This document shows positions 13,042 to 37,010 of a stretch of 64,000 nt of DNA, in pieces. The notes beneath the pieces are model-generated. The model was not told the origin of the DNA and did no database searches. It worked only from the letters and a program-made list of their open reading frames with translations. Made by a program: the position numbers and the translations under genes. Origin of the DNA: a virus; IMG/VR virus record IMGVR_UViG_3300045988_125802; one strand, 5' to 3'. Numbering within the stretch: position 1 is the first letter of the stretch; the number at the start of each line of letters is the position of its first letter.

Positions 13042-16000
13042 AACTTATCTTCTAGCATTTTTATTTTATTCTCCAATAATTGTACTTTTAACAATAACAT
13101 TTCTATATAGTCTATAGATTTATAGCCATTGCTATCTGTTTTGACCAAATCAGGAAGTTGAGCTTCTACATCTTGAGCTATGTATCCTATAGAATGCTTT
13201 TTAGACTCTTTTAAGTCAAACTCCTTTAATTTAAAATCACTTATACAATTATATTTAACTATATCTAAGTCTGTTATGTTCTCTTTTAATCTCCTATCTG
13301 AACTCTTATATATATGTGCAGCGGTTATATCTCCTGCAGCGGTTATATCTCCTGTGCCTGATGACTTTGTTACATTAATACCTCCATGTACTCCTAATAC
13401 ATTATCTGAGTATGCTCCTATTCTAATAGTAGAATCATCTAATACAGAATGGAATACCATATCACCTTTCATATAAAGTACTCCTGTATCCACTGAGTCA
13501 GAGCAATCTATCATTACTGTTCCTCCAGCACCTGTTCTTAGTATTATTGGAGCAATAGTCATATCTTTGGTATAAGGTGTGTATCTCTCTGAATTTAATA
13601 ATATATAAGCCTGTTGCCCATAAGTAACAAATCCAGTAGGGATTCTATTGGAATTTCCCACTCTTAGGAAGGCAGCATTATTACCAGAAGATACATTTGC
13701 TCCTACACTTATATAAGTTGCATTAGAAGAATTATTAATATTAGATGGTCCTCCCAATAATACAGCAGGTAATGTATTGCCATTAGAATTAGCTCCTAAA
13801 TTCTCAAGTAGTGCTACCTGAGAGGTAGTCATATACCCACTAGAACTTCTTGTAGCTGACGGCATAGAAGCTGTTAAATTAATAATGGTTCCTGACTTAG
13901 AAGCATTTAATGTTATAGGAGATGTACCACTGGCATTTATTGTACCAATTCCCCCTAAACTACTAAGAGTATAAGTGGTATCTGCCCAAGGAACATTGAC
14001 AAACATCTTTCCCTCACCAGAAAGCTCAACAGGATAGTTTCTACCATTTTCAGCATATCCTATCTTGACTCCCCCTAGTGCACTTGAAGAGGCTTGAGGT
14101 AATGTGTAACTGCTTCCCTCCCAAGGGACATTCACATAAGCCTTACCATTACTGTCTAATTTAACTGCATAATTTTTGCCATTTTCAGCATATCCAATCC
14201 TAATTAGTCCACTAGTAGTACTACTAGCCAGATTTAAATTTCCAGTATGATATAGAGTATTTCTACTATTGCTTGTAACAAATTTAGGATTGCCATCTGT
14301 GGCTACAGCAAGTATATATTGAGCAGAAGAGCTGCTAATCCATTTAATACCTATACCAATATCACTATTAATATCCTTATACAAATAAGGGTCACTATCC
14401 TTATGCCCTAAATTTAATCTACCTGGAATACTTGTGTTCCCGCTCTTGTCAAACACGACAAACTCCCTGACCGGCTTACTTTCGGTAGTCCGTGTTCCCG
14501 AATACTGTGAAAATTTCACTATCTCGTTATAGGTAGAACTCCCTCCGTCATCGCCCGTATATATTTCAAGAATCCCTTGATTATCTTCTGTACTTCTCCC
14601 CACGATTCCCCAATAATCGTTTGCAGCCATGACTGCTTTTATCCCCCTCTCCCCGGAGTTCCCGTAAGAGGCAAATTGCAAATCCCCCGCAAGAGTAGCA
14701 GCAGTACCATATATACTTCCAGCATGTAAAACAGATGCTGATGATGCAACAGCAGTACTAGGTATAGATGATACTCTTTGAGAATTAACTATAAAGTCTG
14801 CCGTAGTTCCAAGCACTGTTATAACAGGGTAATCATTGTCTGAAGTTGAAAAATATAAATCATACTCAAATCCACTTTTCTTGTCATGGTATAAAATACC
14901 ATTAGTTGTTGACCCAAACACTATACCTCTAATATTGATATGAGCACTACTTTCACTATTTGAGTAGATCCAATAAATGTAAAATAAGTTTAAGGAATTA
15001 GTTTGGCTACCTATGAGCAGGGTTACACATCCTTTTTCAACATTTCTGGTTAAGTGGCCTATCTTAAAATAACTACCATAAGTGCTATTAACATAATGTA
15101 TTACCTTAGAATCCCCATTAATAATATCACTTTTCTTTAGATAGGTGTTTACAATATTGTTGCCATTCTCATCGTTTTCGGCATTATCTGCGGTTCTTGC
15201 TCTACTTATTATAAGGGTACCATCTGTATTAACTGAGGCAAACTCACCTCCAGATTTTATAAGTCCTAGATTTTCATCGTTAGCTATACCCAAGTTACCT
15301 TGATGATAAACAGTATAATATGTTGAGCCATTTTGAGCGTACCTAAGATTACTTGATGTAATAGAAAGACAGCCTTTCCTACCAGAAATGAAGTCCCCAT
15401 TTCCTATAATAACCCCCACATCAGAGTTCTGGTCATATCCTATGAAGCCTGCCCCCCCGAAATTAATACCTGTCCTTACCAAATCTGCATCTTCATTTTT
15501 TAGATAAAGTGCTTCCCAGTTGGTGCTTTCAATAGTGTGCTTACCTGAATATACTTCCCCATTAATATGCAAGGGGTATTTAGGACCATTTGTATTAATA
15601 CCTACATATCCTCCTCTAGGCTGAAGTAACAACATGCACCTTTTTGATACAGTTGTATCTGATGGATATACAGATGTTTGTGGATCCTGCCCATCTATTG
15701 TAGTTTGCAAAACTACAGCTTCTGGACCATTGCCATATAAATCGGATTGCTGAGAATATATCTTTAATGAACCATCATTAGCATAGAGAATGTAAGAACC
15801 ATTACTTGTAGTATTATTAGTGTTCCCTACATATAATGAGTGCCTATTTACCAGCTGCCCAGACATTGTTCCTCCACTAAGAGGAACATACTTACCATCT
15901 ATTGATGAGCCTTTATTAAAGGCATCTGGGAAAGAGATTTCATTCCATCTCTTTCCCTCAACACCTACTTTGAATAATCCAGGGTAGTCTGATACCCAAC

Positions 16001-31330: not shown

Positions 31331-31402
31331 CTGCCACAGTAGATTCCGACACTACAACCTTTTGATTAACAGTCAAATGCTCTTCCTTTGAGCTATGTGG
31401 CA
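31331..31402 (-). tRNA. tRNA-Asn (anticodon GTT) with atypical T-loop
   Basis: The rc folds as TGCCACA-TA-GCTC-AAAGGAA-GAGC-A-TTTGA-CTGTTAA-TCAAA-AGGTT-GTAGT-GTCGGAA-TCTAC-TGTGGCA-G. The T-loop GTCGGAA lacks the usual TTC and there is one T.T mismatch in the T stem. Confidence 0.7.
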
Positions 31403-32620: not shown

Positions 32621-33148
32621 TTTTATATAAAATATCCCTGGAATTTTCTTTTAGAGAAAAAAAAAAGAAAATTCAAAGACTAATAATCTTCTCATTCAAT
32701 TACTAACTTCATTAAGCCCGTTCTTTTAATACCCCTAAAGTGTGATTCCCTGTGCTTTTTCTCAGATAGATGCGCTCACACAACTTAATTTATATAGTAA
32801 TCATTTTAGTAGTATCGGGGACAACCTCAAGAACTATGTAAAAGTGTTCTCTACTAACCCGACTTCTGACCCATTACTTTTTTACCTCGTGGGTGATAGG
32901 TATATCTATCTATACCTCTACTAGGGCACAAAGATATGTAAAAAATTTGATATATGCAAATATATAAATAAAAAAGAATTATTGAGATAAGAATTTTTTT
33001 TTTGAAATTTTTTTTTCTAATTTTTTTTTCTTGGTATTTACAGAAGTGGTAGATACACCAACCACACCCTCCCCATCACTTAGCCCAAGGGGGTCCTACC
33101 CCCGTAGCTAAAACAATTTCATTATTAACAAATTAACATTTTACCATT
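32621..33148. promoter_or_regulatory. Divergent intergenic control region
   Basis: 528 nt between the divergent first genes. It holds three T9-T10 tracts (32994-33003, 33008-33016, 33021-33029), an A9 tract near 32660, and the GC hairpin GGGGG-TCCTA-CCCCC at 33089-33103. Confidence 0.5.
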
Positions 33149-33409
33149 ATGGAAAAGAATTTAGTATTCAATGACACTCTGACAGTAGAGCAGTTCAAGG
33201 CACAAATGAATGTATCACGCATTGATGTGAAGAAGAATCCCAAGACAGGCAAGCTCTTCTTCACCTATGGTGCAAAGACAGGTGCAGTTGCAGTCAAAGG
33301 CATTCCACAGCATCCAATGCTGAGCAATGTCACTGGCTCTGATGGTTCTAACTTCTGGCTTCTGCATGAGGAAGGTCAGGGAGGTGCACCTGTATTGGCA
33401 AGCTTCTAA
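33149..33409 (+). CDS. Hypothetical small protein (86 aa); first gene of the rightward block
   Basis: Intact ORF, visibly more GC-rich than its surroundings. The antisense ORF 33215..33457 is rejected. Confidence 0.6.
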   Translation: MEKNLVFNDTLTVEQFKAQMNVSRIDVKKNPKTGKLFFTYGAKTGAVAVKGIPQHPMLSNVTGSDGSNFWLLHEEGQGGAPVLASF

Positions 33410-33694
33410 GGGATTGCAGGCTTTATGCCTGCTTTCCTTTTTATTTCCTCTAAGCATTAATAGTGTTTAATCCTTTGAACATTAATAGTATTTGTGTGTA
33501 AAAGTTATATGAGTAAGCATTAGTATGCTCTTAGTATAACTCCAAGATATGTTACACATTATATTATATGTAATAGGATTTAACCCTGTTAGTGTATGGA
33601 GTGAGATAAGATGTGCTCTATTTACATCTCTTCCTGACAAGAGGATTAGAGAGGTAAGTAGAGTATTTAGAAGTTCAGTTCATTGAGTAAGTAG

Positions 33695-33746
33695 GATAGG
33701 ATAATAGAGTGTGGAATACACTTTATATCCTATCTCCTTTGTTTTG
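33695..33746 (+). terminator. Hairpin plus T-rich tail (terminator-like)
   Basis: GATAGGATA (33695-33703) pairs with TATCCTATC (33726-33734). An inner AGTGT/ACACT pairing is present. The hairpin is followed by tcctttgttttg. Confidence 0.4.
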
Positions 33747-33756
33747 TGAGATAGTA

Positions 33757-33836
33757 CTGACATTTTGTCAGTCTGTCATTAATCTATAACTTGTTGATTT
33801 ATTGAGAGTTAATAACATAAACTGACAAAATGTCAG
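33757..33836. promoter_or_regulatory. Pair of 6-3-6 palindromic operator-like sites
   Basis: CTGACA-TTT-TGTCAG lies at 33757-33771 and its exact complement orientation CTGACA-AAA-TGTCAG at 33822-33836. Extra half-sites occur at 33643-33648 (ctgaca), in 33771-33780 (tgtcat) and in 33837-33848 (atgaca). Confidence 0.45.
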
Positions 33837-33978
33837 GTGTATGACATTATAACACCCTCCCACAAATACCTCTCATCAAAATCACAGTCAGTAAAACAAT
33901 TATTCAATAATATATGACTGTTTTTACTATTACAGTGATTACGTATATACTTTTGTTAAGCCTTATGATGATTAAACT

Positions 33979-34191
33979 ATGGCAAGAAAACATACATATC
34001 ACCGAGAAAACTGTGACTGTTTTGTAAGAGAAGTCATAGTAGATGTCTATGGAAGAACAATAGTTCTGGGTGGACAACATGCCTTTGAATGGTCTATAAC
34101 TATTCACACAAGAGAAAGAATAGTAAAGACTGTTTATCCTAATGGCAGAGAAGCAAGAAAAGAGTTCTACAAATATAAAAGAAAGAAGTGA
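33979..34191 (+). CDS. Hypothetical small basic protein (70 aa)
   Basis: Intact ORF that begins a chain of stop/start-overlapping small ORFs. Confidence 0.5.
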   Translation: MARKHTYHRENCDCFVREVIVDVYGRTIVLGGQHAFEWSITIHTRERIVKTVYPNGREARKEFYKYKRKK

Positions 34192-35688: not shown

Positions 35689-35760
35689 ACTCTCATAGTT
35701 CAGTGGATAGAATAACTCTCTCCTAAAGAGTAGACACAAGTTCGAGTCTTGTTGGGAGTA
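35689..35760 (+). tRNA. tRNA-Arg (anticodon CCT)
   Basis: ACTCTCA-TA-GTTC-AGTGGATA-GAAT-A-ACTCT-CTCCTAA-AGAGT-AGAC-ACAAG-TTCGAGT-CTTGT-TGGGAGT-A. Confidence 0.8.
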
Positions 35761-35876
35761 CTGAGGTATTACTCATATAAGGTAATTTGATTGTTTTTAG
35801 GTAAAGGATTTTTAGTTCGGGTGACATATTGTCACTACAGGTCAAAGGTTCGTGAGAATATTTGACCTTTTGTGAT

Positions 35877-35950
35877 GTCTCCATAGCTCAATTGGATAGA
35901 GCAACAGACTTCTAATCTGTAGGTTGTGAGTTCGAGTCTCACTGGAGATA
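35877..35950 (+). tRNA. tRNA-Arg (anticodon TCT)
   Basis: GTCTCCA-TA-GCTC-AATTGGATA-GAGC-A-ACAGA-CTTCTAA-TCTGT-AGGTT-GTGAG-TTCGAGT-CTCAC-TGGAGAT-A. Confidence 0.85.
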
Positions 35951-36091
35951 CAATGTCTATTTAACCACTATTTCCTGACCATGCTGGGCAAAATGACTGA
36001 AAATGTGGTGCTGGTAGGTAAGCTACTGTTTCTTGTTTTAGCTTGTACTTTGTTCTTAGAAAAGAATCAAAGCAATAGGGAATCACATTGG

Positions 36092-36175
36092 GAATGTATA
36101 GCTTAATGGTAAAGCAGCGTGGTACCACTTCAAAACAATGAGAGCAAGATGTAGGTTCAACTCCTACTACATTCC
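36092..36175 (+). ncRNA. tRNA-shaped element (84 nt) without a foldable anticodon arm
   Basis: There is a perfect 7-bp acceptor GAATGTA/TACATTC, a D arm GCTT-AATGGTA-AAGC and a T arm GTAGG-TTCAACT-CCTAC. The 35-nt middle (agcgtggtaccacttcaaaacaatgagagcaagat) gives no 5-bp anticodon stem by hand. Confidence 0.4.
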
Positions 36176-36186
36176 TATCTTATAAT

Positions 36187-36580
36187 GGGGCATGATTGGT
36201 TTTGATTACTGATTATTTGGTAAGAGAACATGCAAAGACTGATGGAAAGACATCAAACAATTAAATGGCACATCCTATAGAATTGCTGCCTGATTTAGGC
36301 TGAGTAGCACTTACTTGGAAACAGAAAGGTGTATTGCCTTAATAAATGGTTCTCTGTTTTATAGATTAAGGCACTTATGAAACAAAAATAGAGGTTTATA
36401 TATGATAAGATTAATCTACTTTAAAGTCTTATCTGTAACTATGAGTAGGTAGGAAAATTTCCTTATCAAATAGGAATATTATTAAATTGACAGATAACTA
36501 ACTGTATAACAAATAAGTAAGCATGTGAAATTCTTTTATTAGAGGTTAGTAAGACAGGGGTTCGAGTCCCCTATGCTCCA
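36187..36580 (+). ncRNA. ssrA: tmRNA (transfer-messenger RNA)
   Basis: The 5' end GGGGCAT pairs with the 3' ATGCTCC, including G3.U70, and the discriminator is A. The T arm is AGGGG-TTCGAGT-CCCCT. The 5' GGGGCATGATTGGTTTTGA resembles the Bacteroidetes tmRNA 5' end. The tag ORF at 36267-36293 is GGC ACA TCC TAT AGA ATT GCT GCC TGA (GTSYRIAA*). Confidence 0.8.
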
Positions 36581-36614
36581 CAAAACAATCTTAGTATTAA
36601 CAAAAAAAAAAAGT

Positions 36615-37010
36615 ATGTTTTATGTATTAATGTTTGAGTTCATGCTATTGGGAGTAATAGGTGGACTATTAGGTATATTCTATAGGAATTGCCTGAAGGT
36701 TGAGGATATGATATTCTATCCTTTGTATAGTAAAGTGTTTGTACCTATGGTTAAAAGTGGCAATAGGTTCTTACATTTTATAGCATATCCATTGGGATTC
36801 TGCATCTATTGTAGTACCTTTTGGATAACCATGCTCATTCTTATACTCTTCTTGACAAGCTGGGACTCACTTCCTAAGTGGCAGGATATTGTAATAGGAA
36901 TTATAGCAGCAGAAGGTGTAGCTCACCTGATAGTGTGTATAAGTTGCAGATTCTTAATACATAAACATCCTGACTTAGATAAGGATTACTTAAAACATTT
37001 ACATGAATAA
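36615..37010 (+). CDS. Multi-pass membrane protein (131 aa from the internal ATG)
   Basis: The track ORF starts at 36573, inside the tmRNA acceptor stem. The in-frame ATG at 36615 follows an A11 leader. There are three to four hydrophobic spans. Confidence 0.55.
   Translation: MFYVLMFEFMLLGVIGGLLGIFYRNCLKVEDMIFYPLYSKVFVPMVKSGNRFLHFIAYPLGFCIYCSTFWITMLILILFLTSWDSLPKWQDIVIGIIAAEGVAHLIVCISCRFLIHKHPDLDKDYLKHLHE

Follow-up and report, generated by a model that had tools for sequence, protein, structure and literature searches.

The virus record IMG/VR IMGVR_UViG_3300045988_125802 carries, at positions 36187-36580 of the plus strand, what its sequence identifies as a genuine phage-encoded one-piece gene for transfer-messenger RNA (tmRNA, ssrA). 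The DNA under study, referred to here as the window, was a stretch of 64 kb from a genome of about 100 kb. An earlier note on the window had proposed the gene, and this observation was confirmed. The gene is probably functional and would supplement ribosome rescue during infection by its carrier, a crAss-like phage of Bacteroidales (Crassvirales, Steigviridae-like). The gene measures 394 nucleotides (nt) up to the discriminator A and was recovered by ARAGORN, by the Rfam model RF00023, by covariation in a family of homologs and by minimum free energy (MFE) folding. BLAST placed the window among crAss-like phages (Crassvirales; relatives of Steigviridae/Asinivirinae). The top GenBank match was bajarodcaudo virus 1, with about 84% identity over 20 kb, and other matches were the uncultured phages cr128_1 and cr85_1 and Bacteroides phages. 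The Bacteroidales host predicted in the earlier note agrees with the taxonomy of these related records.

ARAGORN called a one-piece tmRNA at 36187..36581 with the peptide tag GTSYRIAA*. In a permissive search of 36000-36800 (801 nt), the alignment to RF00023 was full length, spanning model positions 1-374 (46.4 bits, E=4e-17), but the score lay below the gathering score of 47 bits. The tmRNA was unlisted in the whole-window Rfam scan at gathering thresholds because of this difference of 0.6 bit. The posterior probabilities were high at both ends and low across the interior. The low score is explained by the unique interior, since L022, a homolog with the same end modules, reached 64.3 bits. 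Three further homologs also scored above the gathering score, with 74.3 (phage cr106_1), 65.7, and 60.8 bits. The gene combines an intact tRNA-like domain with a resume codon in its proper context; its tag is in frame and terminates in AA, and the stop lies within the H5 stem. No open reading frame (ORF) of at least 40 amino acids lies inside it on either strand. A mechanical ORF at 36573-37010 overlaps its final 8 nt, and the true start of that ORF is likely the ATG at 36615. As the earlier note had described, GGGGCAT (36187-36193) and ATGCTCC (36573-36579) form the acceptor stem with the G3.U70 alanine identity pair, the discriminator is A36580, and the T-arm AGGGG-TTCGAGT-CCCCT is present at 36556-36572. 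CCA is not encoded by the gene, and CAA follows the discriminator. The likeness of the 5' leader to Bacteroidetes tmRNAs was also examined: the pattern TGGTTTTGA..GGTAAG..CATGC matched mostly Bacteroidota contigs among the matches listed from a genome collection.

The gene was compared with a family of 60 homologous loci, drawn from 57 IMG/VR contigs and 3 GenBank genomes. The IMG/VR contigs, mostly of 90-100 kb, were retrieved by an invariant 20-mer of helix 2. Three features place the window in this family: the shared 5' module with its 20-mer TTATTTGGTAAGAGAACATG, a tag that fits xxT(S)Y[R/K][V/I/A]AA, and synteny with the genes for tRNA-Arg(CCU) and tRNA-Arg(UCU). The order tRNA-Arg(CCU), tRNA-Arg(UCU), tmRNA recurs across the family. 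ARAGORN called a tmRNA in about 40 of the 57 IMG/VR contigs; it misses the forms of 440-450 nt and those that contain an intron. The tRNA-like domain is intact in 51 of 61 copies, and 6 of the other 10 are interrupted only by a T-loop intron, with the 3' exon lying downstream. The copies fall into size classes of 301-303, 316, 377-386, 394 (window only), and 439-450 nt, plus one derivative of 91 nt. Identity between the window copy and any of the others does not exceed about 80%. In GenBank, the tmRNA itself was matched in three genomes (cr106_1, Kehishuvirus 'tikkala', and cr128_1), and the cultured crAss001-like and PhiCrAssBcn genomes matched the query in its tRNA-Arg part only. The cr106_1 copy (MT774378) is annotated as "transfer-messenger RNA, SsrA" and has 304 nt and the tag DNTYRVAA. 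The copies of tikkala and cr128_1 are unannotated, and that of cr128_1 is broken by a group I intron. The earlier note had called tmRNA genes rare in phages. This holds in general, with 402 of 18,146 phage genomes (2.3%) found to carry one by ARAGORN (PMC9004378), but within this crAss-like clade they are common.

For the covariation analysis, 24 diverse family members were aligned over the 5' and 3' modules that they share. The structure scored comprised the acceptor, the T-arm, helix 2a-d, a hairpin at the position of pseudoknot 1 (PK1), H5, stem 1 of pseudoknot 2 (PK2), and the last hairpin. Over the 58 pairs counted, 99.6% of the cells formed standard pairs, compared with 41-51% in a slid control in which the 3' partners were shifted by 1-3 columns. 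Pairs changed on both sides numbered 10, versus 0-2 in the slid controls, and none of 500 shuffles equalled the observed pairing, compensatory-pair counts or covariation score. The unconstrained MFE fold of the 394-nt RNA recovered all scored helices (z=-3.3), and none of 100 shuffles folded as well.

The seven pairs of the acceptor, including G3.U70, are invariant in all 24 sequences. Compensation is strongest in the T-stem and the last hairpin, and also at the pairs that close helix 2d and PK2 stem 1. Four of the five T-stem pairs show compensatory changes across the family, where the stem occurs as AGGGG/CCCCT, AAGGG/CCCTT, GAGGG/CCCTC, UUGGG/CCCAA, and UCCAG/CUGGA. In ACAG-AUAACUAA-CUGU (36490-36505), the final hairpin ahead of helix 2, three of the four pairs are doubly compensated, with GUGG..CCAC in the relatives against ACAG..CUGU in the window. 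PK2 stem 1 (GCACUU 36307-36312 with AGGUGU 36327-36332) consists of 6 pairs that are 100% paired, and its closing pair is G-C, G-U or U-A depending on the lineage. The 5' strand of helix 2 (H2a-d, 36206-36233) pairs with 36521-36552. Its 27 pairs are 99-100% paired, with one-sided variation (GU/AU) at 9 of them and a compensatory change (C-G to U-A) at 1. The H5 stem GCCU/AGGC (36288-36300) surrounds the UGA stop with 4 pairs, 100% paired, three of them invariant and one changing from U-A to U-G. There is no D-stem; a D-loop analogue, GAUUGGUUUUGA, follows the acceptor.

The site of PK1 is occupied by the 5-bp hairpin UGAUG-GAAAGA-CAUCA (36240-36255), whose middle pair shows a compensatory change from A-U to U-A. 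A second pseudoknot stem was sought by eye in the sequence and the alignment, and neither the loop nor the flanks had a partner; the loop of 6 nt leaves no room for such a stem. The two AAAGAC/AGAGAC copies co-vary (A/G), but not through base pairing. The distance from helix 2 to the resume codon is 33 nt in the window, compared with about 46 nt in L068, a Bacteroidales tmRNA with a clear PK1. The missing pseudoknot is no argument against function, because PK1 of E. coli can be replaced by unrelated sequence with activity kept (PMC2481249). The bases U(-5) and A(-4) before the resume codon (36262-36263) are invariant in the alignment (T76, A77) and equivalent to U85 and A86 of E. coli, and UAA[A/C]U stands directly 5' of the resume codon in all 60 loci. 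In E. coli, A86 is the main frame-setting determinant, A86 and U85 set the frame, and the resume codon lies about 12 nt past PK1 (PMC2481249). In the window, the hairpin ends 11 nt 5' of the resume codon GGC (36267). The complete set of pseudoknots PK1-PK4, which the earlier note had suggested folding, was not confirmed: PK2 stem 1 covaries, but the PK1 site is a simple hairpin and the interior fold is insignificant alone.

The tag segment evidently evolves as a translated frame. In the window it reads GGC ACA TCC TAT AGA ATT GCT GCC TGA (36267-36293), the frame given in the earlier note and by ARAGORN, and the peptide added would be A-GTSYRIAA. The 60 loci contain 14 coding variants; every one keeps the frame, and lengths differ by whole codons, giving tags of 8, 9 or 13 residues. 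The codons for Asn (AAC/AAT), Ser (TCT/TCC), and Ala(-2) (GCT/GCA/GCC) vary synonymously, and either TAA or TGA serves as stop. The commonest tags are DNTYRVAA (25 loci), GNTSYRVAA (16), and GNTYRAAA (11). Rarer ones are DNTSYRVAA, DNTYKVAA, GNTSYKVAA, GNTSYRAAA, GNSYRVVA, GTSYRIAA of the window, and the extended AKSYRMTPALMAA of L017. Except for one extended variant, all end in Y-[R/K]-[V/I/A]-[A/V]-A. The invariant Arg codon is AGA, which is decoded by tRNA-Arg(UCU), encoded by the phage just upstream, and a functional link between the two may exist. In L017 (4369-4755, minus strand), the tag has 13 residues and a C-terminus nearer to the host-type ..A[L/M]AA; three consecutive stops (TAA TGA TAG) follow it, and about 86 nt are inserted between it and H5. 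Since the stop of the window tag is UGA and no other in-frame stop lies close by, the tmRNA requires UGA to be read as stop. A suppressor tRNA or recoding in the window was considered and rejected: the tRNA found by Rfam only at 31331-31402 (minus strand) is a plain tRNA-Asn(GUU). It scored 54.6 bits, was missed by ARAGORN and has the ordinary anticodon loop CU-GUU-AA.

The native Bacteroides tag, GETNYALAA, is a strong degron in that genus (bioRxiv 10.1101/2025.03.18.644028). A wider host sample was obtained with a structure-anchored pattern, which gave at least 120 genome loci, mostly from Bacteroidota; local ARAGORN found 67 Bacteroidota tmRNAs among the matches listed. Their tags are G[E/N]xN[Y/F]A[L/M/F/I]AA and close variants. 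Ala stands at -4 in 67 of these 67, L, M, F or I at -3 in 66, and a basic residue at -4 in none. The phage consensus GNTSYRVAA shares with this type its length, G1, T3, Y5, and the C-terminal AA, and differs consistently in the changes from A to R/K at -4 and from L/M to V/I/A at -3. The tag had been called atypical in the earlier note. It does differ from the host tag, but the Arg at -4 belongs to the whole family (as R/K) and is not an adaptation of this phage; the window alone has Ile at -3 and has lost the Asn codon. Work by Flynn et al. in 2001 is said to have shown for E. coli that ClpX reads the C-terminal LAA-COOH and that position -4 contributes to recognition by ClpA. By analogy with these rules, the phage tag should still be a degron, possibly with altered kinetics or routing.

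The interior of the gene, by sequence comparison, is an exchangeable cassette that is swapped freely between genomes. The 184 nt at 36332-36515 (plus strand), which cover the region of PK2 stem 2, PK3, and PK4, are unique to the window. L022 (IMGVR_UViG_3300045988_001753), the nearest relative, shares the gene order and is 94-98% identical to the window on both sides, and the homology breaks at 36332-36515. No significant match to the 184 nt was found in any fetched locus or in GenBank phages, and metagenome scans with a 24-mer of the interior and a 24-mer of the tag gave no match. The interiors of the family form four unrelated groups, and that of the window is a singleton. A candidate pseudoknot or stems can be drawn in it from AAACAG (36319-36324) and CUGUUU (36354-36359), UGCCUUAAU and AUUAAGGCA, and GAUAAGA and UCUUAUC.

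No SmpB homolog was found in the 64 kb of the window (tblastn; best E=0.17 over 27 residues) or in the loci. The query was an E. coli SmpB sequence, confirmed to be 100% identical to annotated SmpB records. Among 68 phage records with SmpB, which were prophage ends, Lak megaphages and other huge phages, none was crAss-like. As no phage SmpB was found, the RNA presumably uses host SmpB, and AlaRS, EF-Tu, RNase P, and the CCA-adding enzyme of the host would likewise be needed. The RNA itself does not appear to be a recent acquisition. When a hidden Markov model of the phage core was searched by nhmmer against the 67 Bacteroidota tmRNAs, scores reached at most 22 bits and were confined to the ends. 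This weak match points to an old phage lineage and not to a recent host capture or an assembly chimera. A recent bacterial donor was rejected on these scores among the matches listed, and a host fragment on the same scores and on the same synteny in 57 viral contigs.

The gene is part of a small translation module made up of tRNA-Arg(CCU), tRNA-Arg(UCU), a conserved element of about 80 nt, a tRNA-like RNA, the tmRNA and the protein gene ORF131, which opens the plus-strand block of replication genes. Taken in order, the proposed mechanism would run as follows. Host RNase P would cut the transcript at G1, and the 3' end would be trimmed and receive the unencoded CCA. Host AlaRS would charge the RNA with alanine via the invariant G3.U70, and host SmpB and EF-Tu would bring it to ribosomes stalled with an empty A site. 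Translation would resume at GGC 36267, in a frame set by U(-5)A(-4), 11 nt past the hairpin that replaces PK1. The nascent chain would gain A-GTSYRIAA and be released at the UGA in H5, and the C-terminal ..IAA would route the product to ClpXP-type proteases. The phage tag is a conserved variant of the host degron GETNYALAA, with a basic residue at -4 and a beta-branched one at -3. The phage would probably profit by gaining further capacity for ribosome rescue in the infected cell. Both this and a rewiring of trans-translation had been suggested as possibilities in the earlier note.

Several observations weigh against a functional gene with this role. The family is known here from sequence alone, and the RF00023 score of the window copy falls short of the gathering score. 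PK1 is a 5-bp hairpin with a 6-nt loop and not a pseudoknot. The interior alone folds insignificantly (z=-0.9) and is a singleton, which leaves PK2 stem 2, PK3, and PK4 putative. The exact tag and interior occur in no other contig, and therefore this allele is backed by a single assembly. In addition, damaged or truncated copies exist in tikkala (L002) and L037, and the module is missing from the closest GenBank genome; therefore the gene is dispensable.

It is conceivable, and in our judgment unlikely, that the degron has been deliberately retuned. The phage RNA would outcompete host tmRNA for SmpB, and the basic -4 and beta-branched -3 residues, in place of the A-L of the host tag, would then alter the fate of rescued polypeptides. 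If so, proteolysis could be slower or differently routed, or the products could escape a host adaptor or sensor, and the tmRNA would be a tool of host takeover or anti-defence. The swapped interior and the adjacent tRNA-like RNA without an anticodon could then belong to the same arms race.

A role of the RNA mainly as a decoy or competitor is improbable. Its binding to SmpB, EF-Tu or ribosomes of the host would serve to displace host tmRNA or to inhibit it, for instance so as to blunt a host response that senses stalled ribosomes, and tagging would be incidental. No phage SmpB was found, so the RNA would have to compete for the host protein. A phage mini-tmRNA without a coding sequence (CDS), that of DS6A, inhibits host tmRNA in E. 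coli (PMC11915505). The 91-nt derivative in L037, a tRNA-like domain only, still scores 47.3 bits with RF00023, but it comes from a single short contig and may be a mere deletion. This reading is disfavored because the tag is conserved in a coding manner: with synonymous variation, 60 loci preserve its frame and stop, the resume context and the terminal AA, and a pure decoy needs none of them.

It is very improbable that the gene has no current function and is carried as a neutral or decaying passenger, either left over from an old capture or as a fragment of an attachment site. The distribution is patchy, as the module is absent from bajarodcaudo virus 1 and only the tRNA-Arg part is matched in crAss001-like and PhiCrAssBcn genomes; the tikkala copy has a replaced 3' end, and interiors are swapped freely. 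However, the gene is full length and not a 3' fragment, G3.U70, U(-5)/A(-4), and the GCC-stop in H5 are invariant, and the helices are maintained by compensatory changes, which disfavors a relic or fragment. The 51 of 61 copies with an intact tRNA-like domain, and the 6 more interrupted by a T-loop intron only, also speak against decay. To our knowledge, no integrase context is expected in this phage group. Finally, a software artefact, in which an ordinary tRNA-like sequence acquires chance features, might be suspected from the sub-threshold RF00023 score and from the mislabeling of adjoining tRNA-like genes by ARAGORN, but is effectively refuted by two independent methods, controlled family covariation, conservation of the tag frame and homologs whose scores clearly exceed the gathering score. 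A functional tmRNA gene that supplements ribosome rescue thus stays the preferred reading.

Some family members have unusual forms. In Kehishuvirus 'tikkala' (OQ198717), a cultured phage of Bacteroides cellulosilyticus, the copy at L002:3209-3492 has its T-stem and acceptor 3' strands replaced (..GGGTTCGAGTCCAACCATCCCCA) and is probably non-functional; in GenBank, two hypothetical CDSs (WEU69822.1, WEU69821.1) are annotated over it. The 91-nt derivative at L037:9457-9550 (minus strand) has lost the hairpin, tag, and interior but still contains the acceptor, the T-arm and part of helix 2. It is similar to the mini-tmRNA without a CDS from mycobacteriophage DS6A, an inhibitor of host tmRNA (PMC11915505), and may also be a simple deletion or an assembly artefact of its 11.7-kb contig.

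Group I introns (RF00028, 86-88 bits) were found in the tmRNA T-loop after GGGUU, which corresponds to loop subsite 3. They occur in two tmRNA sub-lineages, at L003:3437-~4300 (also in L013, L035, L040, and L051) and at L061:~13460-14350, with the 3' exon 0.87-0.9 kb downstream; cr128-type alleles in L009, L014, L024, L032, L042, and L056 have no intron. Subsite 3 introns of tmRNA have been reported only from the class Bacteroidia (PMC11915505), which suggests phage-host intron exchange or mis-binned phage contigs. An antisense intron ORF at L003:3653-4213 (minus strand; QOR59651.1) matched a PHROG of endonuclease/endonuclease VII/HNH type (E=7e-20) and has a zf-FCS motif. This ORF of the cr128_1 intron probably encodes a homing endonuclease.

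The surroundings of the tmRNA are also conserved. The window is AT-rich (about 30-37% GC) and contains 11 tRNA genes by ARAGORN and Rfam. At about 33000-34000, the sign of the GC skew and the coding strand switch, from minus-strand genes on the left to plus-strand genes on the right. Just inside the plus-strand block, which runs on into replication genes, lies the module of tRNA genes and tmRNA; on its 3' side the tmRNA is followed by genes of replication type (helicase, primase, and others) and by genes for a PRTase and an SPFH/Band 7 protein. The genes for tRNA-Arg(CCU) and tRNA-Arg(UCU) at 35689-35951 (plus strand; ARAGORN) are syntenic with the tmRNA across the family. They are followed by an element of about 80 nt (36000-36083, plus strand), which lies 5' of the tRNA-like gene and tmRNA and is 90-98% identical in 22 loci, more conserved than its surroundings. 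It mostly ends a few nt before the tmRNA, and is located downstream in cr106_1. This element is a candidate promoter, leader or processing element. A sigma-70 scan of the region was uninformative, with fewer promoter-like sites than in shuffles, and no terminators were found there.

An 86-nt tRNA-like gene (36091-36176, plus strand) lies 10 nt 5' of the tmRNA and was called 'Trp cca' by ARAGORN and tRNA by Rfam (49.6 bits). Its acceptor, D, and T arms are normal, and 25 nt stand where Rfam expects 13. By alignment and fold, its middle has about 29 nt against an expected 17 and is without a canonical anticodon stem-loop, so that the ARAGORN labels 'Trp(cca)' and 'Ile(gat)' are not meaningful. 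Homologs are found at L017:4766-4851, L019:755-840, and L022:13536-13621, and more distant ones at L001:3077-3164 and L011:8407-8494. The genes are 86-88 nt long, and the acceptor shows compensatory changes between lineages. The RNA may serve as a decoy or as a processing signal, or it may be a tRNA that carries an insertion. A second tRNA-like family, of 90-92 nt, lies 1.5-2 kb from the tmRNA in related phages, at L002:1030-1119, L007:8233-8323, L008:10262-10353, L011:10190-10280, L018:12411-12501, L027:2786-2875, and L037:11011-11101 and in L044, L046, L049, L055, L059, and L060. In place of the anticodon arm it has a stem of about 8-9 bp, which varies in sequence with compensation and carries at its tip a conserved 15-nt loop UGAUU(A/U)UUAAAGGUAG. 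ARAGORN gave this family five different 'anticodons', which lie inside the stem, and one representative folds with z=-3.2. Rfam tRNA matches of 112 nt at L061:11596-11707 (plus strand) and 144 nt at L007:2329-2472 (minus strand) far exceed normal tRNA length, which suggests further tRNA genes with insertions or introns.

On the 3' side, ORF131 (36615-37010, plus strand) encodes a small hydrophobic protein and starts about 30-35 nt after the tmRNA. Its products are 95-100% identical in amino acid sequence and directly follow the tmRNA in long-class genomes, even where the tmRNA interior differs; homologs 50-59% identical lie further downstream in short-class genomes. ORF131 had no Pfam or PHROG match. 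Bajarodcaudo virus 1 lacks the block 35957-37005, with the tRNA-like gene, tmRNA, and ORF131, as one unit, and therefore the module is accessory.

Phages of the crAss-like group are among the most abundant human gut viruses, and their interplay with host translation is poorly known. A whole sub-clade of them carries a conserved tmRNA with its own tag class, a minimal PK1 and an exchangeable interior, and with no SmpB found. This offers a testable handle on how phages keep ribosomes working in infection and on which tmRNA parts nature requires. Gaps in annotation are also exposed, as the cr128_1 and tikkala copies are unannotated or lie under hypothetical CDSs and ARAGORN misses some forms. For specialists, the family features are R/K(-4) tags, a hairpin for PK1, exchangeable interiors, the lack of a detected SmpB, and introns in the T-loop, at the subsite 3 specific to Bacteroidia, with an endonuclease of HNH type; they are not categorically new. 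We found no literature that analyzes crAss-like tmRNAs, with ARAGORN mentioned in methods sections only, and no crAss entries in the supplements of the tmRNA database paper.

Phage tmRNAs are already known, and one member of this family, that of cr106_1, is already annotated in GenBank. Judged by its sequence, the window gene is a divergent allele of this known gene type, and its "atypical" tag is a trait of the whole family. The cr106_1 gene (MT774378.1/NC_055871.1; Steigviridae, Mahstovirus) is homologous to it in the 5' domain, the hairpin at the PK1 position, the tag frame, H5, PK2 stem 1, the last hairpin, helix 2, and the tRNA-like domain. It has the same tag family and the same neighborhood of tRNA-Arg(CCU), a long tRNA-like gene and then the tmRNA. 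The two differ in length (304 vs 394 nt), in their unrelated interiors, in the stop (TAA vs TGA), in the RF00023 score (74.3 vs 46.4 bits), and at 4 positions of the tag, including V to I at -3.

The one-piece tmRNA of Bacteroidota (RF00023) has the same overall architecture, the 5' signature UGGUUUUGA...GGUAAG...CAUGC, the stop in H5, and, presumably, dependence on SmpB. It also shares the resume codon GGC or another starting with G, a tag of 8-9 residues, Tyr at -5, and the C-terminal AA. The phage family differs from it in R/K at -4, V/I/A at -3, the hairpin for PK1, the unencoded CCA, and a sequence similarity of at most 22 bits that is confined to the ends (67 tmRNAs among the matches listed). 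Among intron-form tmRNA genes (PMC11915505), the counterparts are the relatives of cr128_1 type and L061, with a group I intron after the second T-loop nucleotide at subsite 3, whereas the window gene has no intron. The antisense ORF of the phage intron is HNH/endonuclease VII-like, in contrast to the LAGLIDADG homing endonuclease genes reported by a Pfam/HMMER screen of tmRNA introns (PMC11915505). Huge phages encode tmRNA plus SmpB (PMC7162821). Like their tmRNAs and the two-piece tmRNA of the Methylophilales phage Melnitz, the window gene encodes a presumed ribosome-rescue RNA beside tRNA genes in a virulent phage. It differs from them in being one-piece, in a genome of about 100 kb with no phage SmpB found and no riboswitch, and in a tag that is related to that of the host phylum and consistently altered.

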